This document shows, in pieces, positions 1,139 to 18,713 of a stretch of DNA of 24,594 bases (the stretch's first letter is position 1; the number at the start of each line of letters is the position of its first letter). The position numbers were made by a program, and so were the translations under genes. The notes beneath the pieces were generated by a model, which did not search any database, was not told where the DNA came from, and saw only the letters and a list, made by a program, of their open reading frames with translations. Source of the DNA: Candidatus Heimdallarchaeota archaeon (lineage in GTDB: Archaea > Asgardarchaeota > Heimdallarchaeia > Heimdallarchaeales > Heimdallarchaeaceae); assembly GCA_019057375.1 (NCBI GenBank), contig DXJF01000007.1:1-24594 (forward strand), written 5' to 3'.

Positions 1139-1330
1139 ATGTACGAAGAAGATAAAGAAGAAAGCGGTTATGAACGCGTAGCTAGGCATGAAGCTACAAT
1201 CTATCCTAAAGGATATGAGAATACTTCATATGAAAAACTGGGAGGATTTATTATTTTTGTACCTGCTCATTATGATATCAAAGAAGGAGATATAGTTCGT
1301 GTTACTCTAGAAAAAATAAAGGCGAAATGA
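1139..1330 (+). CDS. small beta-barrel protein, AbrB/SpoVT- or TRAM-like
   Basis: Motif GFIIFVPAHYDIKEGDIVRVTLEK. ATGA overlap with the next gene. Confidence 0.5.
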   Translation: MYEEDKEESGYERVARHEATIYPKGYENTSYEKLGGFIIFVPAHYDIKEGDIVRVTLEKIKAK

Positions 1331-1629
1331 AAAGAATGGAAATAGAAAACATAGATATGAAACTTTATGGTAATCTTGCTTGTACAATTCAAGCAAAATG
1401 TGATTGTGGAAAAACTATAACACAAGGAGATCAGAACGACTATATTGATCTTCCTTATCAATATTTATTGCAATGTGTCGAATGTGGAAGAACCTATGGT
1501 ATTTGTATAGAAGCTAATATAAAACCTAAAATTACTAAACAAACTTATTTTGGACAAAATTTAGAAAAAATTGAAACTGACAAAAAATTTGAAGAATGGT
1601 TAGAAAGTATAGAAGGAGAGATACATTAA
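1327..1629 (+). CDS. Zn-ribbon protein
   Basis: 100 aa with CDCG and CVECG knuckles about 25 aa apart; translationally coupled to the upstream gene. Confidence 0.6.
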   Translation: MKRMEIENIDMKLYGNLACTIQAKCDCGKTITQGDQNDYIDLPYQYLLQCVECGRTYGICIEANIKPKITKQTYFGQNLEKIETDKKFEEWLESIEGEIH

Positions 1630-1658
1630 AGTATTCAAAATATAGGATAGACATTCTT

Positions 1659-2486
1659 ATGACTACAGGTGTGGAGATATATATTGATGAAATAAGAGTA
1701 TTGGGAGAAACTATTAAAGACGCGATAATATCAAATGATACTTTAATTTTGAAAGGGATACAAGCAATGGAATCATCTATATGGAACAAGATTCGCGCTT
1801 CTGAAAGCATAGTAACCACAATAATCACTAATGCATATGATCTTTATGACTCTACGGATCCTAATAGAGATAAAGCAAGTAAAATAAAAACGCATATAAT
1901 GAAAGAGTGGAAGAACAAGTGGAGAGGTGTTTCAGCAGAGAACATATGGGAGACATTAGAGGAGTTAGAAAGACTAGATCTAATAGAGTTACATATGCGG
2001 CAGTATGTTGATAGGCATGGTAATGAAGCTGAAGCACCATACAAAGTATCTTTGAAGCCAATATGGGATGATGTAATTGAGAACATGCATCAAGAAGGTG
2101 GAGATAGATATATTTTCGCATCTTCAATTGGTAAACTAATTGGTTTGTCTATTGCAGGAAACAGACCAGATGTTCGAGGTAGGAGAGCTTATGGTGTAGA
2201 ATCTTGGAGACCTGTTTCTGTTGTAGTCAGAAAAGCGAGTGCTAAACCAGATGGAAGGATATCAAAAAAGGAATTAGAACAGATTTATGTAAGTTCTGCG
2301 ACTTATGGAAAGAGAAAGTGGATTGAGATGCGAGAAAGAGATAAAGCTAAAGCTGAAGAAATTCGTTTCATTACTGATGATAGGGGGTCTTATGTAACAA
2401 TAAATAGAAATGCGATTTTAGCTTATCAAAGAATAGTAGAAAACGCTAGAAGATTAACACAACAGAGGGTAATTGATGAGAGCTAA
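1659..2486 (+). CDS. hypothetical protein, probable tandem winged-helix (275 aa from the ATG at 1659)
   Basis: Long ORF in operon. The ATG at 1659 avoids overlap with the upstream gene. wHTH-like segments: VSAENIWETLEELERLDLIELH and GRISKKELEQIY...RFITDDRGSYVTIN. The CDS is solid, the fold is an inference. Confidence 0.7.
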   Translation: MTTGVEIYIDEIRVLGETIKDAIISNDTLILKGIQAMESSIWNKIRASESIVTTIITNAYDLYDSTDPNRDKASKIKTHIMKEWKNKWRGVSAENIWETLEELERLDLIELHMRQYVDRHGNEAEAPYKVSLKPIWDDVIENMHQEGGDRYIFASSIGKLIGLSIAGNRPDVRGRRAYGVESWRPVSVVVRKASAKPDGRISKKELEQIYVSSATYGKRKWIEMRERDKAKAEEIRFITDDRGSYVTINRNAILAYQRIVENARRLTQQRVIDES

Positions 2487-3177
2487 AAACAATGATTTTT
2501 TGATCTTAAATCCAACAGATATTCAAGAAGATATTATTAAACTAAAAGGAAAGAAATATAATGAAATCTATGACTTTGTAAAGAAAATAATAAGTCACCA
2601 ATTTCAAAGAAATATAGATAAAGGTATCAAAGGTTTTATTTTCTATGGTGATGTAGGTACAGGAAAAACAGTAATGGTTAAGGCGCTTAGTAGAGATCTT
2701 AATCTTCCTTTATTTTTCATAGATGGTGTTGATATTGCAAGAAGTTTATATGGACAAAGTGAACAACAGATTGGGTCATTATTTGAAGTAGCTTCTTCAA
2801 GAAAGTGTATGATTTTAATTGATGACGCTGAATCTGTTTTTCCTAAAAGAGATTGGATTAAAGGTCAATCTTGGCATGTAGCTCAAAATAACGTTTTTTT
2901 CCATCAATTAGATAATATAAACTCAGCAAAAACTTGTGTAATCTTAACAACTAACAGATATGATTTAATGGATAAAGCTATAAAAGATAGATTATATCCT
3001 ATTGAATTTGATAAACCTGATTTAGAGACATTAATTGAGATATCGAAGTTGAAATGTGCAGAATTAGGAATGAGCTCTAAGGAAGTTATAGAAGAGCTAA
3101 AAGCAAATGCTGAGTCTTACAAAAGTGTAAGAGCGTTAGAAAAGTTAATAAGAAGAATATACATCGAAAGTTTGTAG
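2476..3177 (+). CDS. AAA+ ATPase (classical AAA clade, no N-domain, Pch2/TRIP13-like motifs)
   Basis: Walker A GDVGTGKT, pore loop RSLYGQSE, Walker B ILIDDAE, sensor-1/SRH VILTTNRYDLMDKAIKDRL. AGAGGGT RBS before the ATG at 2476. Confidence 0.88.
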   Translation: MRAKNNDFLILNPTDIQEDIIKLKGKKYNEIYDFVKKIISHQFQRNIDKGIKGFIFYGDVGTGKTVMVKALSRDLNLPLFFIDGVDIARSLYGQSEQQIGSLFEVASSRKCMILIDDAESVFPKRDWIKGQSWHVAQNNVFFHQLDNINSAKTCVILTTNRYDLMDKAIKDRLYPIEFDKPDLETLIEISKLKCAELGMSSKEVIEELKANAESYKSVRALEKLIRRIYIESL

Positions 3178-3199
3178 TTCGGGATTGGAACCCCGAACT
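3176..3199. other. GC-rich hairpin overlapping the AAA stop codon
   Basis: AGTTCGGG-ATTGGAAC-CCCGAACT, an 8-bp perfect stem. Confidence 0.55.
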
Positions 3200-3213
3200 T
3201 AAGAAATATAAAA

Positions 3214-3492
3214 ATGGTAAGGAAAATGGTATGGATAATGATTCATGCTTTAAATAAAAATGCATCTACAAGAATTAATGATTATTGTCAGAGAAATCCA
3301 GAAAAACTTATAGCAAAACTCCATTATAAAATACTATTGATGAAAAATGATGGAGAAGTACTTGCTTATTTGGTGAAATTAAAGAAAGTATATGGAGAAT
3401 GGATAGAATTATTTGCAATACAACCTTTAGAATTATTTTCATTACCAGAAAAAGTATTAAAAGTTGTGAATATATGGCTGAACATAAGTTAG
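3214..3492 (+). CDS. hypothetical protein
   Basis: 92-aa ORF, co-oriented in the operon and in the same frame as the AAA gene. The start is uncertain (3214, 3226 or 3238). Confidence 0.5.
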   Translation: MVRKMVWIMIHALNKNASTRINDYCQRNPEKLIAKLHYKILLMKNDGEVLAYLVKLKKVYGEWIELFAIQPLELFSLPEKVLKVVNIWLNIS

Positions 3493-3718
3493 GAGTCACT
3501 CCTAAAATTGCAATAAAACATATAAAAGAGATTAATGATTTGGAGGAATTACAAAAATGTCAGATAATATTCGAGAGAATACGGGTAGAAGAATAGTAGA
3601 ATTGTTAAAAAAAAGCAATCTAAATTTTCAAACAAATATTTTAAAAAGAAAAAGTGATCAAGAGTTAAATAAAATAATTGAAAGAGAATTTGAGAAATGG
3701 GTTGATGAAAATGATTGA
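3474..3718 (+). CDS. small helical protein(s): two overlapping ORFs (3474..3596 and 3557..3718), or one gene split by a frameshift
   Basis: MAEHKLGVTPKIAIKHIKEINDLEELQK... and MSDNIRENTGRRIVELLKK...EFEKWVDEND*. The second ORF has GGAGG at 3542-3546 and overlaps the SMC start by 8 nt. Confidence 0.45.
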
Positions 3719-5540
3719 ATTGGAACTAGAAAATATTGGAGGACTAAGAGGAGAACACAATCTTACTTTGAAAGAAGGTTTGAATATAATTGAAGCTCCA
3801 AATGCTACTGGTAAAACAAGCATTATTAATGGAATAAGATCTTTGATTCTTCCTTCTGAAGATATTAAAAATCAAAGACACTTTCTAAACTTAATGGTTA
3901 AAGATGGAAAAGTCAGCGCTAAAATCAATAATGAAAAGTTTGTAAGAGAGATTCATGAAGCAGGAGGGAATCTTTTTGTCAGTGGTGATTCTCTATTTGA
4001 AGCTGATATAAAAGCAGATGTTCTAGCTGTTGCACAAAGAGGCAATAGATTGTTAAATCTTGTATCTCAAGGTGAATCTTTAAAATCAGTTTTAGATGAG
4101 TTTTCTGATTCCCGATATTATGAATCAGGTGCTCAGATACTTAAATGGAAACAAAATGCTATATTAACCGAATTAAAGAATTACAGGGAAGAACAAAGGA
4201 AATTGGAAGAATATCGTAATCAATTAAAAGAATTAGAAAACGAAAAACAGAAACTAGAAGAAGAACAAAATCAACTTGAAAGAATCCCTGAAGCTAGTGC
4301 TTCTGACATGTTAAAAAAACAAAGAGAATTAAGAGAACTGAATGAAAAAAGAACAACTAGAAAAATAGAAATTCAAAACTTAAAAAACAGATTAGACGAT
4401 TTTAAAAATGATATAAAAGAAAGTCGAAGATTAGAAGAATACTATGAAAAGCAAATTGAAGATTTCTCACAAAGACATCCTGACATAGATAAAGAAATCA
4501 AAGAAATTGATAATGATATTTCAGAATTAATGAAACAAAAGAGTGAAGTACAAACTGAACAAAGAATGATTAGCATTATGTTAGAAGAAAGTAGAAAAAA
4601 CCTTTCAGAAGCGCATAAACTAGGAGTAGACGAGTGTCTAGCTTGCGGGAATAAGAGTTTTTCACGTGCAGATGCTGAAATAAGAGTGAGAGATTTGGAA
4701 AAAAAATATTCTGAATTAACTAAAATTATTGGACAAATAAATATAGAAATTGAACAAAAAAGAATAACAATAGATTCTCTACAAGAGGAACGTCAAAAAA
4801 TAAAAACAGAATTTTACAAAAATTTAAATGATGTTCGACAAAACTTGAAATTTAAAGAAAACGCAAGAAAAAAAACAATTAATGAAATTTCATCAAATGA
4901 AAAAATGTTGAAAGAATTAGAAGAAGAAATCAATGAAACAGAAGAAGGATTTAATGAAACTATTCTTTCTTTAATGCAAGAACATGAAGATTTACGTTAT
5001 AGGATGGGAGTAAATGATGGAGAAATAAGAAGAACTCAAGAGGCTATAAATGAAAGTGCTGATGTAACAGGTGTAGTTCAAAAATCTGAAAAAAAATATG
5101 AATTTTTAGGGCAAACAATAACATATATGCAGAATAAAGCTAAAAGCATATCTGATGAGTTAATTAGGTACTTTAATACAAAGATACATGAAGTTTATCA
5201 AAAACTTGATTTTAAAGATTTTGAAAAGATATATATTGATTCCAATACTTTTGAAATTAATATTATACGTAAAACAAATGGTAATCCAATCAGGCAGCCT
5301 ATTTCCTCCTTAAGTGATAGTGAGAGAAATACAATAGGTATAATTTCAATGTTAGCAGGAAAAGAACAGTTTTTACCAAACTTCCCTCTATTTGTTCTCG
5401 ATGCTGTAACTACAGATTATGATGACACTAGATTCAACTCAATTATTAGTTATTTAGTGGAAAATGTAACCTATGTTTTAGTAACAAAGCTAAGTCCTTA
5501 TGAAACAACTTCAGGATTAACCATAAAACACAAATTCTAA
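3711..5540 (+). CDS. SMC/Rad50-like coiled-coil ATPase, Sph/ASRP-like, with central CxxC hook
   Basis: N-terminal head LENIGGL...APNATGKTS, long coiled coil, central CLAC, C-terminal head LSDSER...LAG...PLFVLDAV..YD...F..IISYL. The start is more likely the ATG at 3711 (or 3705) than the TTG at 3678. Confidence 0.9.
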   Translation: MIELELENIGGLRGEHNLTLKEGLNIIEAPNATGKTSIINGIRSLILPSEDIKNQRHFLNLMVKDGKVSAKINNEKFVREIHEAGGNLFVSGDSLFEADIKADVLAVAQRGNRLLNLVSQGESLKSVLDEFSDSRYYESGAQILKWKQNAILTELKNYREEQRKLEEYRNQLKELENEKQKLEEEQNQLERIPEASASDMLKKQRELRELNEKRTTRKIEIQNLKNRLDDFKNDIKESRRLEEYYEKQIEDFSQRHPDIDKEIKEIDNDISELMKQKSEVQTEQRMISIMLEESRKNLSEAHKLGVDECLACGNKSFSRADAEIRVRDLEKKYSELTKIIGQINIEIEQKRITIDSLQEERQKIKTEFYKNLNDVRQNLKFKENARKKTINEISSNEKMLKELEEEINETEEGFNETILSLMQEHEDLRYRMGVNDGEIRRTQEAINESADVTGVVQKSEKKYEFLGQTITYMQNKAKSISDELIRYFNTKIHEVYQKLDFKDFEKIYIDSNTFEINIIRKTNGNPIRQPISSLSDSERNTIGIISMLAGKEQFLPNFPLFVLDAVTTDYDDTRFNSIISYLVENVTYVLVTKLSPYETTSGLTIKHKF

Positions 5541-5650: not shown

Positions 5651-6103
5651 ATGACAAATAGATTAAAAATGATAAAAATGAAGGAAGAAATAGAGTTCAC
5701 ATATTATGCAATGATCTATTCAATAGATGAAGAACATCTATACATTTTACTGTCCAAAAAAGAAGGATACTTAATATATGTCCCAACAAATTCTGGTTTC
5801 AGACGAGGAGATCATGTAAGAGTAAAACTCAAAAAACCAGTTGTTAAATATAAAGAAGAATTTGCTTTAGTTACAAAAGATGGAAAATATGAAGTTCATA
5901 GTGCTAAAGTTACTTTTAGCAAAAAGAAAGGCAAAGTTTAGGGAATAAATTCTGAATGGACAAAAAGAAGTCTTTCTATTCCTAAAGAAACAACTGATCT
6001 CTCTAAAACATTTGTTTTTTTTGAACAAGATGAAAATGGTATCTGGTACGCTATTTTTTTCCAACCTTTAGGTGAACATGATATAATCAAATCAAGAGTG
6101 TAG
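5651..6103 (+). CDS. AbrB/SpoVT-like protein interrupted by an in-frame TAG at 5939-5941
   Basis: The 96-aa ORF (GYLIYVPTNSGFRRGDHVRVKL) is followed in the same frame by 53 stop-free codons (...KRSLSIPKETTDLSKTFVFFEQDENGIWYAIFF...) ending at TAG 6101-6103. Confidence 0.55.
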
Positions 6104-7954: not shown

Positions 7955-9790
7955 ATGGAAGGAGAAAATGAATTTATAACTAGTAATACACTTTTCTTTC
8001 TTGGAGCAGGATTTTCTGCATCAGCAGGTGTTCCTATGACTTTTGCTTTTGTAGAAAAATTCCAAGATTATTTGAATGAAAATAAAAAAGAGCTATCTAT
8101 AGAATTTCATAAATTACTTGAAATATTTAAAAAAACTCAAATTAGAGATAAAGAAATAGGTATTCTTCCAGATATTGAATTCGTTTATGAAATACTTCAT
8201 AGAAGATTAGATTATAATAATGAATTAATTCTAGCTTTTTTTGAGAATTATAAAGGGATTCTAGATTCAATTCCATCCGATATAGTTGAGAAATTAATCG
8301 TTGAATTAAAATACTTTATTAAAAAAAAGACTAATGTAAATCTTAATTCTATTATATATTTGAAAGATTTTCAAAGATTTTTTGATAGCAATGAGATTAT
8401 TGAAATTTTTACGACAAATTATGATAATACGATAGAACAATTTTGTTCAAACTATGGAATAAGTTATACTGATGGATTTGATTTAGAATGGAATAGAAGT
8501 ATATTAGAAGAATTGAAATATAAACTAAAACTCTATAAAATTCATGGTTCAATAGGGTGGTACCAAACTACAACTGGAAAATATCTAAAAATTCCAATTG
8601 ATTTTGAACAATATTGTGATTCTTGTAGGAGGAAAATACCAGTTTTAAGATCAGGTGAAATTCTTGAAGACATGATAATGTATCCAATGCAAAAATGGGA
8701 AAGACCAGGACCTTTGCTTGATTTGATGTATATTTTAAAACAAAGATTATTATCCTCTAATACTGAAATTGTAATTTCTATAGGATATTCTTTTAGAGAT
8801 GATTATATCAAAACCTTATTTATTGAATCTCTAAAAAGAAATCCCTCATTACACATCTTTATAATATCTCCATCCGCAGATAAAATAAAAAAAGTTTTTC
8901 TAACTGAAGAAAATCTAGAATTAAATACTAGAATAATTCCAATTACATCCTATTTGGAAGACATTTTACACATACTAAATAACATAAGATTTTATTATAA
9001 ACAAGCTTTGAAAGATGAAGAGGAATGTTATCGAAATTTGAGACATGGAGGTAGACCAAACTGGAATTCTACTGTAGATAGATATATTAGTTCTTTCCAT
9101 TTCGAAAAAGTCCTAAACACATTTAATAATGATGATGATTTTCTATTTGATAGAAATTTCACCCAAAAAATAGAGATTGCTTTCAAATTAATTATTGGAC
9201 TTTATTCATTAAATCTTAAAGAAGAAGCTCATACAATAAAAAAACAATTATTTGGGTTATATGAAGTTTTTATTGAAGGCTTAATATTAGAAATTTATGA
9301 TTTGAAAGATGAGGTTTACCCATGCAATCTAAGTTCGACTGTTAGCAGTATAGATAGAAATAGCAGAAGAAAAGAACATATAATAAGAACTAATGATTTT
9401 CAAGGAATTGAAAGAAGTCTAAGTACATTGAATTTCCTAAAAAACAGATATATAAAGAAAATGAAAAATGAAAATACTCAAAAATTCAATGAGCTAAAAT
9501 CAATGTTTGAATTTTTAGAAGTAACTTCGATAATTTATAATTTTTGGAATAGTAGAATCCTAAACAAAGAACTATTAGAAGAACATTACGGGCAAATAAA
9601 TGAAAAGCTTGGGATTGTAATAAGAGAAAGAAATGATTTAGATAAAATCTTTCCAATCGAAGATAATTCAAAAGCTGAAAAAGAGATTTTAGAGAATGAA
9701 AAAAATATCTTTAGAACTATTCTGGATCATTATTTTTTCATTACAGATAAACTAGACAAAGAAGAAATTTTCAGAAAATGGAAATTATAG
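7955..9790 (+). CDS. SIR2-like (SIR2_2-type) NAD+-cleaving domain protein with C-terminal helical region
   Basis: FFLGAGFSASAGVP, IFTTNYD, YKIHGSIGW, SIGYSFRDDYI motifs in aa 1-310. TATA-like TTTATACA at 7927-7934. Confidence 0.88.
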   Translation: MEGENEFITSNTLFFLGAGFSASAGVPMTFAFVEKFQDYLNENKKELSIEFHKLLEIFKKTQIRDKEIGILPDIEFVYEILHRRLDYNNELILAFFENYKGILDSIPSDIVEKLIVELKYFIKKKTNVNLNSIIYLKDFQRFFDSNEIIEIFTTNYDNTIEQFCSNYGISYTDGFDLEWNRSILEELKYKLKLYKIHGSIGWYQTTTGKYLKIPIDFEQYCDSCRRKIPVLRSGEILEDMIMYPMQKWERPGPLLDLMYILKQRLLSSNTEIVISIGYSFRDDYIKTLFIESLKRNPSLHIFIISPSADKIKKVFLTEENLELNTRIIPITSYLEDILHILNNIRFYYKQALKDEEECYRNLRHGGRPNWNSTVDRYISSFHFEKVLNTFNNDDDFLFDRNFTQKIEIAFKLIIGLYSLNLKEEAHTIKKQLFGLYEVFIEGLILEIYDLKDEVYPCNLSSTVSSIDRNSRRKEHIIRTNDFQGIERSLSTLNFLKNRYIKKMKNENTQKFNELKSMFEFLEVTSIIYNFWNSRILNKELLEEHYGQINEKLGIVIRERNDLDKIFPIEDNSKAEKEILENEKNIFRTILDHYFFITDKLDKEEIFRKWKL

Positions 9791-9969: not shown

Positions 9970-10623
9970 TTAATATATCTCCTCTTCTTTAGGAATGCGA
10001 CCAAAATAATGTGCTATTTTTTTTCTTAAATCAATTCTAGAATTCTCAGATAATTCTAAACACTTTGATTTCAAAATTTTATCTCCAATATCCTTTCGAA
10101 TTATATATTCACAATTCAACTGATAAATTGTTTTGAAATCAATCATTTTATATTGAGTTTCATATTCTATTTCATCTTTTTTGACTGTTTTTTTCACTTG
10201 ATATCTTTTAAATAGTTCATTTTCCGCATAAAAAAAAAGATTCAAGTAAGTAAATAATCTTCCTTCCTTTTTATTTTCTTCTTTTTTCTCTTCAGGTAAT
10301 CCTTCCCATACATGTGGTGGAATTATTGTTTGTTTATCAATTTCAGTATTTAGTAAAGTGAAATCTTTTCGTATGGCTGGACTACTAAAGTACTTCACAG
10401 GGATATCCAAAAGAGGAGCTAATGAAATTGTCTTTTCTTCAATATTACAACAAGGTGTTACAATTACGGAAAATTTAGGCATAGTAATTCTCATTTGTAG
10501 TTTAGATTCATATAAAGTCTCAGGAATTATAGGATCATTGATTTCAGGAATAAAATTAAAAAATCCTTTAATCACATCACCAAATCTTAAAAGCGTATAA
10601 TCTGGTTCCTTTTCATAGAACAT
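9970..10623 (-). CDS. hypothetical protein, putative PemK/MazF-like fold toxin
   Basis: 217 aa. The motif order GDV / VIVTPCCNI / SLAPL / IDFKTIYQL / L.LSENSRIDLRKKIAHYFGR resembles long PemK-like proteins. The fold is an inference. Confidence 0.5.
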   Translation of the reverse strand: MFYEKEPDYTLLRFGDVIKGFFNFIPEINDPIIPETLYESKLQMRITMPKFSVIVTPCCNIEEKTISLAPLLDIPVKYFSSPAIRKDFTLLNTEIDKQTIIPPHVWEGLPEEKKEENKKEGRLFTYLNLFFYAENELFKRYQVKKTVKKDEIEYETQYKMIDFKTIYQLNCEYIIRKDIGDKILKSKCLELSENSRIDLRKKIAHYFGRIPKEEEIY

Positions 10624-10628
10624 AGAAT

Positions 10629-10913
10629 CTATTCCTCTAAATAAAGATCTTCCTCTTTGTGATAATTTTCTTTGGATATAATTTGTCTGAATGATCTAAA
10701 ATCTCTGTTTATTTTTATTTCAATTATTCCTAGAAATTCATTTGAGGAAGTGAGTTCGACTTTAATTAAATATCTATCAAAAGGATATTCTATTATTTTG
10801 GTTTCTTCATCTAAATCAATCTTACTACCAGTTCCTTCCATTTCAAGTGAATCATTTTTTTCACCTAGATTTGAAACAAAATCATTCATTCTTCTTTTAT
10901 TCATTTTTCTCAC
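10629..10913 (-). CDS. hypothetical small protein (middle gene of three-gene operon)
   Basis: 94 aa, acidic, low-complexity N-terminus. Overlaps the upstream gene by 17 nt and lies 5 nt from the downstream gene. Confidence 0.65.
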   Translation of the reverse strand: MRKMNKRRMNDFVSNLGEKNDSLEMEGTGSKIDLDEETKIIEYPFDRYLIKVELTSSNEFLGIIEIKINRDFRSFRQIISKENYHKEEDLYLEE

Positions 10914-11658
10914 TCATAAATTTCTTTACTGGATCTTTGATAGTATTTTCCCATTCATTATGTATTAATTCATGAAGTTCATCTAGAATGGATATATAAT
11001 TATTTACATGAACATTGGTAGCATAACCATCAAAATCAAGATAATATTTAAACGTTGATTCTTCTTTTACTATAGATTCTCTGTAGGTTAAGAAATAGTC
11101 TTTTCTTCTTGTAGTTGTAAGGAATTGAATTTTCTCTGTATTTTCTAGATCGAATCTGTTAAGTGGAAAAACAGTATTATACCATTCCTTAAATTCTTCA
11201 TTTTTCATCGAAGGAATAGGAGCGTCATCAATATATCGTAATCCCATTCTTTTTATGGTATGTAAGGGAACTAATTCAAGAAAGTAATCCACTGAATACT
11301 TTGTAATATCTCTGAAACCATTACTGTCTGGAGAATAATAAGACTTATGTTGTTGAGATACTATATCAAGAGAATTTGTTAAAACACTTAATGTGTATTT
11401 ATCATCAGACTTAAATTGCCATATTTTTACTCCTAAACTCTCTTCAGTTGATATTTCTTCTAATTTAAATTCTGGACCAACATCTGCAATCATCACTTGT
11501 CTTCTTATACTTAGTGAGGATTCAGGAAATTTATCAATAATTTTCTCTTGAAATTCTCCAATTTTATTTTCTATAATAAATAGATTCGCAAATTTAATTT
11601 GAAAGATTACTTGTTTTATAATAGGATTTGGATAAATTATGTAGTTTTTGGGTATCAT
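10897..11658 (-). CDS. TIGR04255-family protein
   Basis: N-terminal YPNPIIKQVIFQIKF, central KRMGLRYID, C-terminal YYLDFD...ILDELHELIH..W.NTI, recognisable as this family. TTTATATA box at 11699-11692. Confidence 0.75.
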   Translation of the reverse strand: MIPKNYIIYPNPIIKQVIFQIKFANLFIIENKIGEFQEKIIDKFPESSLSIRRQVMIADVGPEFKLEEISTEESLGVKIWQFKSDDKYTLSVLTNSLDIVSQQHKSYYSPDSNGFRDITKYSVDYFLELVPLHTIKRMGLRYIDDAPIPSMKNEEFKEWYNTVFPLNRFDLENTEKIQFLTTTRRKDYFLTYRESIVKEESTFKYYLDFDGYATNVHVNNYISILDELHELIHNEWENTIKDPVKKFMSEKNE

Positions 11659-12029
11659 ACTTAAATTCAGAAATTTATTATCATAATTATATATATAAAT
11701 TGTGTACAGTTTTAGAAAAATCTAAATGTGAATGTTAGAATTACTTTTTCATTTTATTGCAAACCTTATATTCTTCTTATATGGAGGTTAATCTAAAAAA
11801 ATACTTTGCTAGAAGGCAATTTTTAGAATCGCTTAAAATGGCTCAAATACAGAAAAACGCTATTTTCAGCCTTTTTGAGAGAAAAATCAAAGCCATACTT
11901 CAATGCTAAAGAGAGAAAAAGCTAGGCTGAATATTGTGGTTCATAGGTGAATCTTTTCTTAGAGTTGTTTATTTTTGGAATAGCAATTCCAGGTATTTTG
12001 TTTTAGGTCCACTAAGTAGAAGCTGAACT

Positions 12030-12146
12030 TTGTTGTCAAAACGTGTCCAAAACGATAAGAACTTGAGATCTGCGTAATCAATTTGATTACTCAGAGGGGT
12101 ACTTTTGAAAAGCATACCTTGTTGTCGGAACGTGTCGTAAACGATA
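12030..12146. repeat. 28-bp direct repeat x2 (iteron-like)
   Basis: TTGTTGTC-aa-AACGTGTC-ca-AAACGATA (12030-12057) and TTGTTGTC-gg-AACGTGTC-gt-AAACGATA (12119-12146), 24/28 identical. Confidence 0.75.
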
Positions 12147-12267
12147 GAAACCACATTCTACTCTAATTAAGTAGAAGTGAAACCTTGATGAAACATGATG
12201 AAAAGCTGTTTTAGACAGATTTCGACAGAGATTATTAGAAATTTCAGATTAACTGTTAATTTGACAT

Positions 12268-12603
12268 TTATTGTTTTTTGCATATAGAGGAAATAGGTTT
12301 TTCACCTACTGATAAAATCTTTTTAATTTCCTGTAATTTGTCATAAGGCAAGTTTTGGATCTGTTCGATTTTATTTAAGCTGTTAAGGAGAAGCTTGATA
12401 TCATGTAATATTTTTTTAATCTTTTCCTTTTCCCTTTTTTCTTTATCTAAAAACCATTCTTCTATTTTCCAGTCTTTTGCACAAATAAATTCATATTGGC
12501 AACGTTTACATTTATTAGAAAAGAAATTCCATTTAGAACAATTCCTGATCTTGTTTTTTTCAACAGTAGTAAGATCATGATAATTTAAAGCTGATTTATT
12601 CAT
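12268..12603 (-). CDS. Cys-cluster / coiled-coil hypothetical protein
   Basis: 111 aa, C-x9-C-x2-C-x5-C (CSKWNFFSNKCKRCQYEFIC). GGAG-rich RBS and ATGA overlap with the upstream gene. Confidence 0.7.
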   Translation of the reverse strand: MNKSALNYHDLTTVEKNKIRNCSKWNFFSNKCKRCQYEFICAKDWKIEEWFLDKEKREKEKIKKILHDIKLLLNSLNKIEQIQNLPYDKLQEIKKILSVGEKPISSICKKQ

Positions 12604-13445
12604 TTAGAACCCCCTCTCCTATCATATTCTTTCATATAATGTATAGCTCCATCTATCTTCACTTTTCCGTCAAAAATAGGTTGCATAGTTTTCTTACAAA
12701 CAGGACAAACATTTTTTATTCCTGAATCTTCCCATTTTTTTATTGGACAAGCACAAGAATGTTTTATTAAAAGTAATTTACTTTTCAATTTGTTTTTATG
12801 TTGTTGTTTCTTCTTGAGATATTTTTCTCTTTCTTCAGGAGTAATTTTTTCTAAGAAACTTTTTTGGATGTCGTCTAACAATGGATCGGTTGGTTCAGGG
12901 ATTATGGGCACTGTAAAGGAATCTTTACGGTGAAGTTTGCTATCTAGAGGGCTTGGGGTTATTGTCTTGTTTTCTTTACAGTGAATGTTTTCTAGACATT
13001 CATCATATTGTGAAGTAAATTTTTCATAAATTTCAGGATCTACATCAGGAAGAAAGTAAACAAAAGCAGTTTGGTTTCTATATCTGTATTTTTCCTTTTT
13101 TAGATATCCATAGTTGTGGAGATTTTTAATTAACCAGGATAGATTCATTTTATTTGTTTGGATATTTTGAGCTAGAGCAGATTTGTAAAAACCACTTATA
13201 TTGTCTATTTGCTTGGTTTGTATTAATTCTATTTCTTTTTTCATCTTACTAAATTTAGACCAGATACTCATCTTTAGAGGATCATTAAAATCTAAATCTG
13301 ACTGCAGGTATTCCCATAACTGTAAAGGATTATTTACAGTGAGAGAATCAGTATTATTAGATTTATGACAAGAATGATTGAGATATTCTTCCATTGAATA
13401 GTGCATTTCACAGTATTGACAATAATAAAAGAGTGTTTCAGTCAG
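12600..13445 (-). CDS. Zn-finger / wHTH / Zn-ribbon protein, probable CTG start (281 aa)
   Basis: The frame is open 13 codons above the track's ATG (13406) to a CTG at 13445, adding CQYC. Central wHTH-like LSWLIKNLHNYGYLKKEK..., C-terminal CACP...CPVC. Confidence 0.7.
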   Translation of the reverse strand: MTETLFYYCQYCEMHYSMEEYLNHSCHKSNNTDSLTVNNPLQLWEYLQSDLDFNDPLKMSIWSKFSKMKKEIELIQTKQIDNISGFYKSALAQNIQTNKMNLSWLIKNLHNYGYLKKEKYRYRNQTAFVYFLPDVDPEIYEKFTSQYDECLENIHCKENKTITPSPLDSKLHRKDSFTVPIIPEPTDPLLDDIQKSFLEKITPEEREKYLKKKQQHKNKLKSKLLLIKHSCACPIKKWEDSGIKNVCPVCKKTMQPIFDGKVKIDGAIHYMKEYDRRGGSK

Positions 13446-14755
13446 ATTCTACCACCTTCCTTTATTTTGTAAATATCTTTTCTAGCTCCTTTTCCTGATC
13501 TTACTTCTTTGTAAGCTGTTATTTTCCCTAAATCTAACAGCTTTCTAATATGGTAGTAAATCCGATTATAATCTAGCTGTAAAACTGTTTCAAGTTCATG
13601 AATTGAATGATCCTTTTTCTCTAAAAGTTGAAGGATTGTTGTTTGTAAGGATTCGCTCCTAGCTTGATTAGTGCTAACTACTTTGAGAATATGTATTTCT
13701 TCAGCTAGAAAATCACATTCTTTTTTCATGCTGCTGTCATGGTCCTGAATAAGTTCTGTTTGGGTATCAACCTTGTGGAGTAACATTAAATCATTTGTAG
13801 CTAATTGTAATTGTAATTGAGCTAGCTGATTCATATCTTTGTTATAATTATAGAAATTACTATCAAGTTGTTGAACAACATTTCGATTATAATTTAGTAC
13901 AGAATTGAGTTTAGACATGCTTTGATTGTGAGAGGTTTCAAATTGGCTTAATACAATATTTGTTCTATCAAATACAGTACCTATTTTCAACTCTAAATCA
14001 GTTCTTTCTAGCTGTTTAATCATTCTATCAACAGGGATATCCATTTTGCTTAATTGGACTTCTTTACGCAATCCTTCTTTCTTATTATAAGCTGTTAAAA
14101 GAAGATTTTGAAAAGCTTGGACACTAACATAATTAGCTCCTGCTATTCTCAGAAAATCTTTATCATTGTGTAAATCAAAATTGATTATCCTCATTTTATC
14201 ATGACTACATTTTATCTCTTTCAGGTGTAATACAGTATCAACAACAGCTATTAAAGCATTGAATAGATAAACATCCAGAGCTTTCTTCCAACCACTACAT
14301 TTAAGGTCTATCCTGATACTGTGAGTAGTCTTGTAAAAAGTGAATCTTATGGGATGAGAGAGATTCAAAAAAGGTACTTCTAGCTTTTCATATTTCTTAA
14401 TGGGTAGATCTCTTATCATAATTATTATTCGATGAATGAATAAAGGTTCAGCAGAATCGAAAAAGGAATCTAATTCATAAGGGATCAGTTCTTTAGGTTC
14501 AGCTTTGAAATAATAGTACAGAAATGGCTGTCTCTCTGTTCGAGCAATAGAGTAGTTAGGATCTCTTACTAATCTTGTTAAAATCCGTCTAATGCTTGAA
14601 GGATTAGAATCAGGATTAAGCTGTTTAATAGCTTTGACTATTTCCCCACAAGTAAGCTTATAGCTAGCTTGATGAATAGTGGAGATAATAGATTCAGTTA
14701 AAGAAAAGGTAGAAGAGGGATTAGCTGGGTTTTCAATTTTAGCCAATAAAATCAA
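13442..14755 (-). CDS. multi-domain DNA-binding protein: wHTH, alpha/beta core, coiled coil, ArsR-type wHTH (candidate replication protein)
   Basis: N-terminal LTCGEIVKAIK...PSSIRRILTRLV; C-terminal SIHELETVLQLDYNRIYYHIRKLLDLGKI. An AGGAG RBS suggests a TTG start at 14746 rather than 14755. Confidence 0.75.
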   Translation of the reverse strand: MILLAKIENPANPSSTFSLTESIISTIHQASYKLTCGEIVKAIKQLNPDSNPSSIRRILTRLVRDPNYSIARTERQPFLYYYFKAEPKELIPYELDSFFDSAEPLFIHRIIIMIRDLPIKKYEKLEVPFLNLSHPIRFTFYKTTHSIRIDLKCSGWKKALDVYLFNALIAVVDTVLHLKEIKCSHDKMRIINFDLHNDKDFLRIAGANYVSVQAFQNLLLTAYNKKEGLRKEVQLSKMDIPVDRMIKQLERTDLELKIGTVFDRTNIVLSQFETSHNQSMSKLNSVLNYNRNVVQQLDSNFYNYNKDMNQLAQLQLQLATNDLMLLHKVDTQTELIQDHDSSMKKECDFLAEEIHILKVVSTNQARSESLQTTILQLLEKKDHSIHELETVLQLDYNRIYYHIRKLLDLGKITAYKEVRSGKGARKDIYKIKEGGRI

Positions 14756-15200
14756 CTCCTAGAAAAGAGCGACAAGCGACACAGACTGATAGGGAAAATG
14801 TCACACTTTTTTCAAAAATAATAGAATCGTTAAACTCTCGAGTAAAAGCCTTTGAAACAATAAATTTGTTAAAATTAGCTATGATAATTTTTAAAATCTT
14901 TTTTCTAAAAATAAAGGTTGTTGAGACAATTTTTTGTCGCACTTTTTTCAAAAAAATAATGAAATGGCTTTCATTACATTCCTTTTGATAAGACCCCTTT
15001 TTGTAAGGGAGTTTAGTCTTTTTTTTCTGAACAGCATCTAGTAAGGTAGGTATAGGTGTTTCATTAGAAATAGCTTTAAACAATTTTAGTATTGGTGAAG
15101 TAAAACAACAATCAAGTTTATTGTTTAGAGTTATCTGGTTTGTGAGTTTTGTAGAGTTTTCTTTTTGCTGTAAATGGGGTACCCTTCTTGTAAGCTCCAC
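14739..15200 (-). CDS. hypothetical basic protein
   Basis: 153 stop-free codons in AT-rich DNA, with the 3' end containing the RBS of the next gene. GTG start and no recognisable motif. Confidence 0.4.
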   Translation of the reverse strand: MELTRRVPHLQQKENSTKLTNQITLNNKLDCCFTSPILKLFKAISNETPIPTLLDAVQKKKTKLPYKKGSYQKECNESHFIIFLKKVRQKIVSTTFIFRKKILKIIIANFNKFIVSKAFTREFNDSIIFEKSVTFSLSVCVACRSFLGVDFIG

Positions 15201-15207
15201 CTTTTTA

Positions 15208-15230
15208 AAAGAGTGTAGCGCCTACTCTTT
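15208..15230. other. hairpin at island/host transition
   Basis: AAAGAGT-GTAGCGCCT-ACTCTTT, 7-bp perfect arms. Confidence 0.35.
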
Positions 15231-15366
15231 AGTAGTCTAGATACATTACTCCACCTTATTAGAAAACCCCTTCTCATATAATACTGCCAGCTTACGTCAA
15301 TAATACACTCAAACTTTTATTGCTTGAAAAAACAATTTTATAGCTCTTCGTGTAAAACAGTGAACA

Positions 15367-15759
15367 ATGATAAAAATAGTTATCCTAGTTGGAAGCATTA
15401 TTACACTTGGATTTGCTGTCTGGCATTTTCTAGTTCCTTGGAAATATAAGTGGTTCAGTTACATGCCTAATATCTCTAAGGATTTAGAAAATTCAATTAA
15501 AGCCACAAATTTCCTTTTCGCTCTTTCTTTACTTCTATTAGGCAGTTTGTCTTTAATAGTTACAAGCTGGTTATGGGAAAATACTTTGATTGTAAGAATC
15601 GTATTAGTAATGATGTCTATACTTTGGACTGCTAGAGTTATTTATCAAATCATTAAACCACAAGGAAAAATGCTTCAGCATGTCTCCACAATAATGTTAG
15701 GCACTTTTATCATAACAGATTTGTTGTTCGTTATCCCAATGTTCATCGTATTCTTCTAA
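15367..15759 (+). CDS. integral membrane protein (about 4 TM)
   Basis: 130 aa with four hydrophobic segments. Confidence 0.8.
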   Translation: MIKIVILVGSIITLGFAVWHFLVPWKYKWFSYMPNISKDLENSIKATNFLFALSLLLLGSLSLIVTSWLWENTLIVRIVLVMMSILWTARVIYQIIKPQGKMLQHVSTIMLGTFIITDLLFVIPMFIVFF

Positions 15760-15815
15760 TAATTTAGAAATATTAATATAGAAAGCAAGGTGTTAGAAAT
15801 AATAGAGATGATATT

Positions 15816-16196
15816 ATGCCTCGTCCAGCAGCTTTCTTAGGCGGAGCTTTAACAGCTATAGGTATTTTTGGTGTGATTATTTCAATAGTCCAGTTAACTG
15901 ATAAGTATTGGTGGCTACTGTTTTATCTTGGTATAGGGATAATTGGTGGTTTCTCCCTTGGATCAGTTTCAGCATCTTTTAAAGAACAAGAAAAGAATGC
16001 TTATTTGACGCTAACCGGATTTATGCTAGCAGCATTAATTTTGCTAACTGTTTTTCTAGGAATATGGCAAAACAGTAATCCTGCTTTAAACACTGTTTTA
16101 GGTGGCATTTGGGTAATTATCATTGCTGCAGCTTCAGGTTTGGTCACATTTATTGGAACGACTTTAATGTCAGTTGGCGAAGGTTTCAAAAGATAA
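15816..16196 (+). CDS. integral membrane protein (about 4 TM, Gly/Ala-rich)
   Basis: 126 aa with four hydrophobic segments. Confidence 0.8.
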   Translation: MPRPAAFLGGALTAIGIFGVIISIVQLTDKYWWLLFYLGIGIIGGFSLGSVSASFKEQEKNAYLTLTGFMLAALILLTVFLGIWQNSNPALNTVLGGIWVIIIAAASGLVTFIGTTLMSVGEGFKR

Positions 16197-16283
16197 TTTT
16201 CTCGTTAACACTTCCACAATCTTTTTTTTCCCATAAGACTTAATATCTTCTAAGTAGCTATAATATTTAAAAAAAAGAGAACG

Positions 16284-17438
16284 ATGTTTATGAAAAATAT
16301 AAAATTCTTTCATCTTGGACAATTTTTTGGTAAAAGAGCCTTGATTGCGACACTTCTCGGTGCTGGACTTGCCGTTGTAACAGAATATGTTCTTCCAAAG
16401 TTCGGAATTTTTGCTTACTCCGCTATTCAATACTGGATTACCCCCGCAACCATAACATTTACTCTTGCAGTAATTATCATATTTAGTGCAATTGCGAAAA
16501 ACTTAGTAGCATCTATTCTTATAGGAACAGCAGCTATTCTTTCTTTTTATAGTCCTTATACAGCAGGAATTTACGATTATGGCTTTTGGTCAATTGTAAT
16601 AATTTACCTAGTCACCGCATTTTTCTCAGGATTGTTTGCAGCAATAGAGATGTCTGGAAGAACAGCTCTGTTAGTTGTTGGAATTGTATATGGAATACAA
16701 GGATTCATTGGTGCAGGAACTAGTATGTTCCTTGGTTTAACTAATATGCATTTACCATTTCATGATAATTATCTCGGAATTGCATATGGTAAGACGATGG
16801 GTTCATTTCCATTGTATGATGTGATAGTAGGAGGATTTTCATTTATCTTCATGTTAGTTTTTATCATTCTTTCTCGTAGAAGAGATTCAATTGATGTTGA
16901 TAACAAAAAACGTGAAATAATTGGCCAAATCATAATATTTCTAGCAATATTTGGAGCAATACTTTTCATTGTTTTATCTAACGTTATGTTTGATCAGACT
17001 TCTGCAGAGTTAATTTTTGGTGATAAAAATACTAGATTTATGAATCTTCTTTTTGCTAAGAATCTTACAGGTGGGTTTATGGCAATTAAATTGCTTAATG
17101 TATTCTATATTCTACCCATTGTAGGTTTTGCTATTGGAATTGGAATGCTTTTCATCATACATGGAAGAGCAAAAGGTACAACCGGTCATTTCAGAATGAA
17201 TTTTGAAGGACCTTTATTACTCCTCAATGTTGTCCCATTCTTAATAATTTTATTCTACAGTTATCCTGTTCAAAGATTCTTTGCAGGAGATGCTCCAGTA
17301 ACACATTTCTACCTTGAGATGCCAGCTTGGTTTACAGTATTCACTGAATATACAAGTCTATTACTCATAAATCTCTTAGTTGCATATATAATTTTCAAAA
17401 TAATTACTTTAACTAAATATTTAATTCAGAAGAGATGA
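16284..17438 (+). CDS. polytopic membrane protein (about 10 TM)
   Basis: 384 aa, repeated hydrophobic helices, no motif recognised. Confidence 0.82.
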   Translation: MFMKNIKFFHLGQFFGKRALIATLLGAGLAVVTEYVLPKFGIFAYSAIQYWITPATITFTLAVIIIFSAIAKNLVASILIGTAAILSFYSPYTAGIYDYGFWSIVIIYLVTAFFSGLFAAIEMSGRTALLVVGIVYGIQGFIGAGTSMFLGLTNMHLPFHDNYLGIAYGKTMGSFPLYDVIVGGFSFIFMLVFIILSRRRDSIDVDNKKREIIGQIIIFLAIFGAILFIVLSNVMFDQTSAELIFGDKNTRFMNLLFAKNLTGGFMAIKLLNVFYILPIVGFAIGIGMLFIIHGRAKGTTGHFRMNFEGPLLLLNVVPFLIILFYSYPVQRFFAGDAPVTHFYLEMPAWFTVFTEYTSLLLINLLVAYIIFKIITLTKYLIQKR

Positions 17439-17465
17439 TCAATTCATTTCTTACCTTTCTCTTTT

Positions 17466-18713
17466 TCAGGTAACAATAAACTCATGACCATCAAATGAAC
17501 CTGATTGGTCTCCGCTATTTCTCTGTATTAATCTTTCTTTCATTTTGGGATTGAGACCAAATAAGTAAGATCTTCCTTTTTGACCTTTTAGAACAACTAT
17601 GTTTTTCTCTTTCAATCGTTTAAGAAAGCTCTTAGTTCCCATATATTTGCTTCGGTATTCTGATGAAGGTAATTCTCCATAAAGATAAAGGGTAATTTCC
17701 TTTGCAGAGGCATCTTTATGAATAAGATACTCACACACTTGTCTTTCTCTATGGGGTAAGTTATTCAAGACTTGTTGGTATAAAAATTTCTCATGGTCAT
17801 CTAAACCATCTTGCACAGTAGAACGGGAGAAGAGATCTATTACATCAACAACATCTTCATGGCTTACACTTTTCGAACCTTTTTTCTGGGAATACGAGTA
17901 AGCGTCAGATAGAATAGAAATCAAAATCCATGGATTTCCTTTTGATTTGTTCCATGCTTCTTCTATCGCCAATTCTGAAAAAACTTCTGTCACTTTAAAG
18001 GAAGATTGATTTAATGCATAACACATTCGAGAATGAATTAAGTCTTTCGCATCTTGAATTGACATTTCTGAAATTCTAATTGAATATGTAAAGTGATCCC
18101 ATCCTCCATTTTTTAAGCCGTTTAAACTTATTGGCATATCACTGAGATTGAAAGATATAACGCAAGAAAAGTTTTCTCTTAGTAATTTCAGTATTTTAGC
18201 TGAATATTGGGAAATAGCAAAAAGATTGTCTCCTGTGAAATTATCAAGCAAAACTACAAGTAGTGAGTTTGTACTCATAACATATTTTTTTAGCTCTACT
18301 ATTATTTGCTCTTTTGTGGAGTAATATTTTCCAAGTACTTGATCGGCAATATTTTGCAGAAAATTAGTTAGTGTGTATTCTTTGAACTCATCGGAAGTGA
18401 AATTCACAATGAATATTTTATCAAAATCTGCATACTTCCAAAGAGATTCTTTTAACCCATCTTTTAACAAATTCATCAAATAAGATTTTCCTGATTTAAT
18501 ATCCCCCATGATAGAACAAATAGATTTACCATTTTTTATTATCTGTACTAGACGTGCAACTTGAATGTTGAGTTTTTCTGATGATATATACAACTCTGGA
18601 AGAGGGGCCATTGTCCAAGGATCACGTCTAAATTCCTGATTCTGAACATTGAAATTCTCATCAGTTATATATTGTGAAATTTTGAACACTCTATCTAGTA
18701 GGTTTTCTAACAA
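17466..18713 (-). CDS. P-loop AAA+-type ATPase (ExeA/Cdc6-like architecture) with C-terminal winged helix
   Basis: Walker A GDIKSGKS, Walker B VVLLDN, lid SKGNPWIL, C-terminal wHTH (ASAKEIT...KSFLKRLKEKNIV...YLFGL). Confidence 0.75.
   Translation of the reverse strand: MLENLLDRVFKISQYITDENFNVQNQEFRRDPWTMAPLPELYISSEKLNIQVARLVQIIKNGKSICSIMGDIKSGKSYLMNLLKDGLKESLWKYADFDKIFIVNFTSDEFKEYTLTNFLQNIADQVLGKYYSTKEQIIVELKKYVMSTNSLLVVLLDNFTGDNLFAISQYSAKILKLLRENFSCVISFNLSDMPISLNGLKNGGWDHFTYSIRISEMSIQDAKDLIHSRMCYALNQSSFKVTEVFSELAIEEAWNKSKGNPWILISILSDAYSYSQKKGSKSVSHEDVVDVIDLFSRSTVQDGLDDHEKFLYQQVLNNLPHRERQVCEYLIHKDASAKEITLYLYGELPSSEYRSKYMGTKSFLKRLKEKNIVVLKGQKGRSYLFGLNPKMKERLIQRNSGDQSGSFDGHEFIVT

Follow-up and report, generated by a model that had tools for sequence, protein, structure and literature searches.

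A conserved operon joining an archaea-specific SMC-related protein to a AAA ATPase and small partner genes in Heimdallarchaeota and distant lineages

Introduction

Coalescin (ClsN) is essential in Sulfolobus islandicus, where it shapes the compartments of the chromosome. Together with Halobacterium Sph1/2 it is one of the proteins around which the SMC-related proteins specific to archaea (ASRPs) were defined, a family that also covers the haloarchaeal proteins Sph1-4 (Yoshinaga et al. 2022, PMC9389158). The same study reported no consensus among the genes flanking ASRPs and left open whether bacterial occurrences represented contamination or gene transfer (PMC9389158). ClsN acts on the organisation of the host chromosome (PMC11344861), and Sph3 controls rod shape in Haloferax together with an adjacent small partner gene, RdfA (PMC10869688). 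The locus described here lies in a stretch of 24,594 nucleotides, hereafter the window, comprising positions 1 to 24,594 of contig DXJF01000007.1 of a Candidatus Heimdallarchaeota archaeon (assembly GCA_019057375.1). It consists of five genes, designated A to E and together termed the cassette, in which the gene for an ASRP-family ATPase (E) is preceded by genes for a tandem winged-helix protein (A), a AAA ATPase (B) and two small proteins (C and D).

The window has a G+C content of approximately 30%, and the metagenome-assembled genome (MAG) from which it derives totals 3.47 Mb in 159 contigs. This MAG shares its family with one labelled Heimdallarchaeota and is accordingly that of an Asgard archaeon. 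In the literature searched, no paper linked an ASRP or any SMC-like gene to a AAA partner, and no description of the operon was found. We know of no described prokaryotic precedent in which an SMC-like ATPase has a AAA dedicated to it.

Operon organisation and conservation

The five core genes occur in the fixed order A-B-C-D-E and form a real conserved unit. A scan for the AAA in one genome per GTDB species yielded 27 loci with B; the complete order was found at 18 of these species-representative loci and at 3 further metagenome loci. Iterated hidden Markov models (HMMs) recovered the genes beside the AAA with E-values of 1e-43 to 1e-99 for A, 1e-23 to 1e-48 for C and 1e-193 to 1e-249 for E. 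The 18 loci are distributed among Heimdall- and Promethearchaeota, Thermoplasmata, Nanoarchaeota, Methanocellales, Nitrosotalea, Deferrimicrobium and Dehalococcoidia, with the cassette present in at least seven archaeal lineages in addition to the Dehalococcoidia. In public collections the same five-gene order was encountered in a 430-kb Joint Genome Institute (JGI) contig, in Thermococcus contigs and in a Chloroflexota MAG. The first-pass annotation, made by a model from the sequence alone, had proposed that these genes represent an undescribed system and had set conservation of their order across genomes beforehand as the test. The synteny observed across distant genomes bears out that proposal, as does the finding that the unit maps onto no PADLOC system.

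In the window all cassette genes lie on the + strand in an overlapping or nearly abutting run that extends, with an additional upstream gene (Z), from 1327 to 5540 (Table 1). A and B overlap by 11-14 nt and D and E by 14 nt, D overlaps the end of C, and all gaps are of 36 nt or less. The start assigned to A is supported by homologues that begin with the same MTTGVEI. Scans against Pfam, PADLOC, PHROGs and NCBIfam identified neither a nuclease domain nor any other effector domain in the cassette genes. The initial description of the locus as a set of co-oriented, closely packed genes without a nuclease is thus upheld by the coordinates and by the library scans.

Table 1. Positions of the cassette genes and adjoining open reading frames (ORFs) in the window.
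Feature	Position	Strand	Description
Z	1327..1629	+	100-aa Cys-rich (CxC...CxxC) zinc-ribbon-like ORF, upstream of A
A	1659..2486	+	275-aa tandem winged-helix protein
B	2476..3177 (alternative start TTG at 2473)	+	233-aa AAA ATPase without N-domain
C	3214..3596	+	~125-aa ferredoxin-like small protein; frameshifted in the window
D	3557..3718	+	53-aa two-helix microprotein
E	3705..5540	+	611-aa zinc-hook SMC-like ATPase, ASRP family
Downstream ORF	5651..5941	+	96 aa, 110 nt past E; membership of the cassette doubtful

Between A, B, C and E, pairwise distances show matrix correlations of r = 0.86-0.93 (B vs E, r = 0.91), which indicates that the cassette passes on as one unit, both by inheritance and by transfer. 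B was detected in 6 of 301 genomes of the phylum to which the window belongs, with no occurrence among the 22 further members of the same genus. The operon appears to have spread by horizontal transfer, the form carrying A and B being apparently mobile and sporadic.

The SMC-like ATPase

The product of E matches the NCBIfam ASRP model NF045487 with a score of 354.5 bits against a cut-off of 300 (E-value 1.1e-105), the alignment extending over model positions 1-592 of 593, and is a full-length member of the family. E, named at first pass as a zinc-hook SMC-like ATPase of a candidate undescribed system, is not unclassified: it belongs to a published family (NF045487; PMC9389158) and the SMC-like protein is therefore not itself new. 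The sequence contains an N-terminal Walker A motif (PNATGKT), a CxxC zinc hook midway along the coiled coil, and a C-terminal LSDSE signature and Walker B. The zinc hook noted at first pass is indeed present, as CLACG at residues 311-315. The Walker B motif reads FVLDAV, with Ala in place of the catalytic Glu, and this LDAV form without the catalytic residue is common to a subclade made up of the window, L023, L017 and L024. Elsewhere the corresponding residues are DE in most other cassette ASRPs, DS in two haloarchaeal plasmid ASRPs and DK in one ASRP of a sister genus. The best PADLOC match of E was to LmuB (6.8e-17, full length), far weaker than the match to the ASRP model; the JetC, DndD and PbeC models matched weakly, JetC at 1e-7 or worse and over the coiled coil only.

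The cassettes of Dehalococcoidia (L039, L036, L020, L028 and L033) encode E proteins that pass the ASRP cut-off with 345-364 bits. One of them, L039, lies on OZ242014.1, a complete chromosome of 3.3 Mb, and the designation archaea-specific is therefore not strictly true of the family: ASRPs have truly entered bacteria, which settles the question left open in PMC9389158.

The AAA ATPase

B is a AAA ATPase of the classical clade that matches PF00004 at 1.1e-22. Its motifs include GTGKT as Walker A, a pore loop with YG and an arginine finger in the form of one DR. Its Walker B reads LIDD, with an invariant Glu two residues on, and a family-specific invariant sequence, RDWxKGxSWHxAQNN, occupies the position expected of pore loop 2. 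An alignment of 28 B sequences contained 46 invariant columns, including those of GxGKT, the YG pore loop, the sensor-1 TN and the DR arginine finger. The family is 50-60% identical across domains, and B is the best-conserved gene of the cassette, with a mean pairwise identity of 53% vs 25-32% for A, C and E. B looks active, given that no variation is seen in its Walker A, YG pore loop, sensor 1 or arginine finger.

The best solved relatives of B are VAT, Cdc48 and p97, and TRIP13 was absent among the 60 best solved relatives listed (VAT, Cdc48, p97, AFG2, Rix7 and Rpt). The IetA model scored 63 bits (7e-18) and CDC48 60 bits, as compared with 49 bits for TRIP13 (PADLOC TRIP13, 1.4e-13); the PAN and FtsH models also scored as well as or above TRIP13. 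The initial designation of B as Pch2/TRIP13-like was therefore too specific. Neither an IetS nor a protease match was obtained in the cassette using Pfam and PADLOC, and the IetAS pairing was accordingly not encountered.

The winged-helix protein

A was recognised at first pass as a protein with tandem winged helix-turn-helix (wHTH) domains, and structure prediction agrees. The AlphaFold2 (AF2) model, computed from an alignment of cassette homologues (predicted local distance difference test (pLDDT) 89.3; predicted template modelling score (pTM) 0.88), comprises an N-terminal helical bundle, a first winged helix (WH1), a helical linker, a second winged helix (WH2) and a long C-terminal helix. 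Fold searches with Foldseek and VIA-align returned generic winged-helix matches with Z scores of 7.2 or less. WH1 superposes on the winged-helix domains of Nse1/3, JetABC, ScpA-C and Scc1-C (Z 6.0-6.8), but common wHTH regulators score equally well, and A was for this reason assigned neither as a KITE nor as a kleisin protein.

No Pfam, NCBIfam, PADLOC or PHROG family was matched above threshold by A, C or D, including intact homologues from three clades, and the same was true of Z. Profiles of A and C compared with PDB sequences gave only E-values above 0.01, the best being a DnaD-like winged helix, and the ESM Atlas held no usable match for either protein. The A family has 27 members, each encoded directly upstream of the AAA, and A without B was never found in the data examined. 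Two tandem A paralogues are present in the cassettes of Promethearchaeota and Deferrimicrobium (L043:2527-4170, L045:5341-6984 and L047:4665-6587).

The small partner genes

Intact homologues of C encode 119-138 aa. The copy in the window lacks 1 nt near 3466, which divides the gene between a piece of 92 aa (3214..3492) and one of 40 aa (3474..3596), the first 85 residues of C being read in the former frame and the last 40 in the latter. Both pieces match the C HMM (4.8e-32 and 6.2e-11) and together they align end to end with homologous proteins; DNA alignment with the two nearest relatives likewise places one missing G near 3466. What had been reported as separate 92-aa and 81-aa proteins are therefore two frames of a single broken gene. 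A contig bearing a AAA gene of 95% identity ends before the site of the frameshift. Unless the deletion is an assembly error, the copy of the cassette in the window is probably impaired, gene C being frameshifted.

The AF2 model of an intact C homologue from L023 (pLDDT 90.8) has a body of 70 residues with a beta-alpha-beta-beta-alpha-beta arrangement, followed by a less ordered helical C-terminal tail. Fold matches were to generic ferredoxin folds, namely UreE, Cas2, ACT and PII, at Z scores of 8.1 or less, and on the strength of such generic matches C was not assigned as a Cas2-like protein. At the position of D, each of the 20 non-redundant cassettes has an ORF of 45-93 aa, and so does the locus of the more distant ASRP paralogue of the window genome described below. 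These ORFs align with a shared pattern as a two-helix peptide, and the D HMM finds the members at L023, L022, L024 and L017. The actual second small gene is the 53-aa D, which had been overlooked at first pass; the 92/81-aa pair that had been named does not exist as such. The first-pass annotation had also pointed to Pch2/TRIP13, which acts in eukaryotes as a remodeller of HORMA proteins on chromosome axes built on cohesin. No ORF gave a HORMA match with Pfam or PADLOC, and the confident models are ferredoxin-like for C and winged-helix for A, so a HORMA-like partner for the AAA is not sustained.

The C-D-E core and the A-B addition

C, D and E constitute the constant core of the operon, to which A and B are a translationally coupled addition found in the rare mobile form. 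This distinction follows from loci in which the trio occurs without A and B. Of 21 genomes in a sister genus belonging to the same class, 17 possess an ASRP that scores above or close to the cut-off. Where these loci had sufficient upstream sequence, a C homologue (1e-9 to 1e-16) was located just upstream of the ASRP in 14 of 16, with no A or B within 1.5 kb. One such locus, viewed in full, begins with a divergent gene upstream; after an intergenic gap come C (131 aa), a D-like ORF of 57 aa and the ASRP. The genome of the window itself encodes a second, more distant ASRP on contig C35 (L002:330-2683), of 629 aa, which with 210 bits stays under the cut-off. Upstream of it are a 118-aa match to the C profile (7e-7) and a D-like ORF of 52 aa; no AAA is visible, but the contig begins only 330 nt upstream.

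The AAA also occurs alone. Nine of the 27 loci carry B without the cassette. In Nitrososphaerales the solo AAA keeps all invariant motifs and resides in a conserved neighbourhood of TusA, sulfur-transporter, DUF169 and thioredoxin genes (L049-L051, L029-L032, L035, L038 and L040), what looks like a housekeeping context, suggesting that it has been domesticated for another task; solo copies were also found in two Dehalococcoidia. In a midpoint-rooted FastTree phylogeny of the AAA, the support values of which were not inspected, both solo groups nest inside cassette clades, suggesting secondary loss of the partner genes. With C-D-E operons lacking the AAA and AAA genes lacking the operon, the AAA is not common to all ASRP complexes, and its control of SMC loading or release, as suggested at first pass, is conjectural.

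Genomic context

The unit reaches upstream of 1659, where Z is a lineage-specific member of the operon. Its counterpart in the closest relative is a 111-aa ORF at the same position (L023, 5852..6187), and it is missing from most other cassettes; Pfam zinc-ribbon matches to Z were all below threshold. The position after E also varies. The 96-aa ORF of the window has no Pfam match, and the closest relative, L023, has no ORF at this position. A MazE/AbrB-type gene of 53-62 aa is found there in Thermococcus, Promethearchaeota and Thermoplasmatales, with the gene at L045 matching PF04014 (7e-12), and a gene of 126-135 aa in Dehalococcoidia and Methanocellales. Z, the MazE/AbrB-type gene and the 126-135-aa gene are putative small DNA-binding genes with which some lineages supplement the cassette.

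Among the flanks of 20 cassettes no family was common to more than 4 loci. Several contain transposases or defence genes (BrxP-like/ParB, DarTG, SNF2/DrmD-like helicase and BglII, with SIR2 in the window). The first-pass annotation had put forward the nearby SIR2 or PemK-like gene as an effector partner, and neither proved to be a conserved neighbour in these flanks. The SIR2-domain protein of the window (7955-9790) is a stand-alone protein of 611 aa encoded 2.4 kb past the cassette; it matches PADLOC Aga_SIR2 at 7e-27 and Pfam SIR2_2 at 1e-11, and its C-terminal half is unassigned. Beyond it, positions 9970-18713 hold mostly family-less ORFs on both strands, including a 415-aa AAA_22-type ATPase (17466-18713). 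This stretch lies between the cassette and housekeeping genes (galactokinase-like, pterin-binding and F420 ligase) and may represent the remainder of a larger accessory island. The window contains no tRNA genes and hence no attachment site was identified.

A second SMC-like gene adjoins the Promethearchaeota cassette at L043 (8155-11717), where it follows two family-less genes encoding 273 and 253 aa. Its product, an ATPase of 665 aa, was considered as a further ASRP and rejected, being Rad50-like and having two unrelated genes upstream.

Proposed function

The favoured interpretation, to which a probability of roughly 45% is attached, is that the cassette is a self-contained, transferred operon encoding an ASRP-type SMC-like DNA-binding machine, in which A and B remodel a clamp built of C, D and E and DNA is restrained without being cut. 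E would dimerise via its hook and clamp DNA between ATP-engaged heads. C, with its ferredoxin-like body and flexible tail, and D, as a helical hairpin, may serve as non-SMC subunits bound to the heads or to the base of the coiled coil, in the role that kleisin/KITE proteins or Mre11 have for other SMC-like ATPases. The bare AAA is missing an adaptor or DNA-binding domain, which A could supply in trans, and a hexamer of B would thread the flexible end of a subunit of the complex, thereby resetting, unloading or activating the clamp. The cassette may in this way hold, compact or silence particular DNA, whether foreign or mobile, rather than cut it. A holding or silencing role appears the most likely because no nuclease is encoded and the distribution is patchy, partly within variable islands.

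A number of observations weigh against this interpretation. Most ASRP operons lack any AAA, and the similarity of A is to winged helices in general, which leaves a kleisin or KITE role unproven. The AAA was found neither on PLSDB plasmids (B homologues at 1e-20) nor in GenBank phages, and a single partial match was recovered from 2.9 million IMG/VR viral contigs; its absence from PLSDB and GenBank phages leaves a plasmid or viral origin unsupported, though archaeal elements are scarce in these collections. The characterised ASRPs serve the host chromosome (ClsN) or cell shape (Sph3) and not defence. The cassette might accordingly be an accessory module for chromosome organisation or cell shape, like coalescin or RdfA-Sph3, with the AAA as a chaperone for assembly or turnover and no role against foreign DNA. 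That E is a bona fide ASRP, in a family whose known members organise the chromosome (PMC11344861) or control rod shape (PMC10869688), speaks for such a module, as do the many cassette flanks composed of ordinary metabolic and housekeeping genes and the near-universal occurrence of C-D-E in one genus (17/21), which would be expected of a housekeeping function. The explanation is nevertheless considered rather unlikely, if deserving of serious attention: the A-B form is rare, patchy (6/301 genomes of the phylum; 0/22 of the same genus) and crosses domains, a pattern not typical of housekeeping proteins that organise chromosomes; the window genome tolerates a copy in which C is broken; and no similarity of RdfA to A, C or D could be detected. 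The principal evidence against a AAA strictly dedicated to the ASRP comes from its solo copies. In five genomes with a solo AAA neither A nor C was found, nor any ASRP above the cut-off, and the substrate of the AAA therefore need not be the ASRP complex. Retention of all invariant motifs by solo AAAs of Nitrososphaerales and two Dehalococcoidia that lack these partners would fit a general-purpose remodeller, comprising the AAA with A, that shares an operon with the ASRP trio without acting on it. Such independence is distinctly unlikely, given that the solo clades nest within cassette clades and look like secondary losses (subject to the midpoint rooting and uninspected supports of the tree), that order is fixed and genes overlap in 18 of 27 loci, that B and E diverge in concert (r = 0.91) and that A was never found without B in the data examined.

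It is highly improbable that the locus represents a variant of a described SMC-based defence system such as Lamassu or Wadjet. The LmuB model does match E over its full length (6.8e-17), with weak matches to JetC, DndD and PbeC, but the ASRP model is far stronger (1e-105), no cassette ORF gave a PADLOC match to LmuA, LmuC, JetA, JetB or JetD, and no nuclease or effector domain is encoded. The least credence is given to a Pch2/TRIP13-type AAA as the remodeller of a HORMA-like partner located on an SMC axis. The single DR arginine-finger motif is as in TRIP13, and the PADLOC TRIP13 model does match B (1.4e-13); against this, IetA, CDC48, PAN and FtsH score equally or higher, the solved relatives are VAT, Cdc48 and p97, no ORF matches HORMA, and the confident models show a winged-helix fold for A and a ferredoxin-like one for C.

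A bolder extension of the favoured DNA-restraining machine may be offered as speculation, and on present evidence an unlikely one. C and D could be the missing non-SMC subunits of ASRPs in general, possibly including coalescin, and the mobile form could have recruited a AAA unfoldase and a winged-helix adaptor that open or unload the clamp. Were this extension true, the cassette would be the first prokaryotic SMC-family machine under the control of a protein-remodelling AAA and would provide restraint of foreign DNA without a nuclease. Coupling of a AAA to an SMC-like ATPase would be relevant both to the mechanisms by which SMC complexes are loaded and unloaded and to archaeal defence against mobile DNA.

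Comparison with known systems

Among SMC-based defence systems, Lamassu (LmuA-LmuB-LmuC) and Wadjet (JetABCD) resemble the cassette in forming sporadic operons that combine an SMC/Rad50-like ATPase with small non-SMC partners. The cassette differs from both in having no effector nuclease, and none of its ORFs matched LmuA, LmuC, JetA, JetB or JetD in PADLOC. To our knowledge neither Lamassu nor Wadjet includes a AAA ATPase, and the PADLOC models agree. In the Smc-ScpAB, MukBEF and Smc5/6 complexes, the KITE subunits are tandem winged-helix proteins like A, although no sequence similarity of A to kleisin or KITE families was found. Rad50-Mre11 shares the zinc-hook architecture of E; no Mre11 is encoded in the cassette. 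C and D are without counterpart in either the SMC-kleisin-KITE complexes or Rad50-Mre11.

With VAT, Cdc48, p97 and the classical AAA unfoldases (TRIP13, Vps4 and IetA), B has in common a classical core and an aromatic-Gly pore loop. It is distinguished from them as a single module of 233 aa without an N-domain, by a DD-x-Glu-type Walker B and by the RDWxKGxSWHxAQNN insert.

The closest parallel in gene arrangement is the RdfA-Sph3 pair, where a small gene is likewise situated directly upstream of, and overlapping, an ASRP gene in conserved synteny (PMC10869688). RdfA, at 201 aa, is not detectably similar to A, C or D, and the haloarchaeal pairs lack a AAA. Comparison of the A and C profiles with Haladaptatus RdfA by hhalign gave a probability below 1%, and E-values from hmmsearch exceeded 0.1 for each of A, B, C and D; homology of RdfA to A, C or D was rejected, none being detected.

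E itself conforms to the ASRP family in the order Walker A, central CxxC, signature and Walker B and in its length of ~610 aa, and departs from it in the fixed operon with C, D, A and the AAA and in the LDAV Walker B of its subclade. C and D, with A and the AAA in the mobile form, are concrete candidate subunits and make the question of ASRP partners directly testable. Set beside the described systems, the SMC-like protein is the known element of the locus; the operon partnership was not found in the literature searched.

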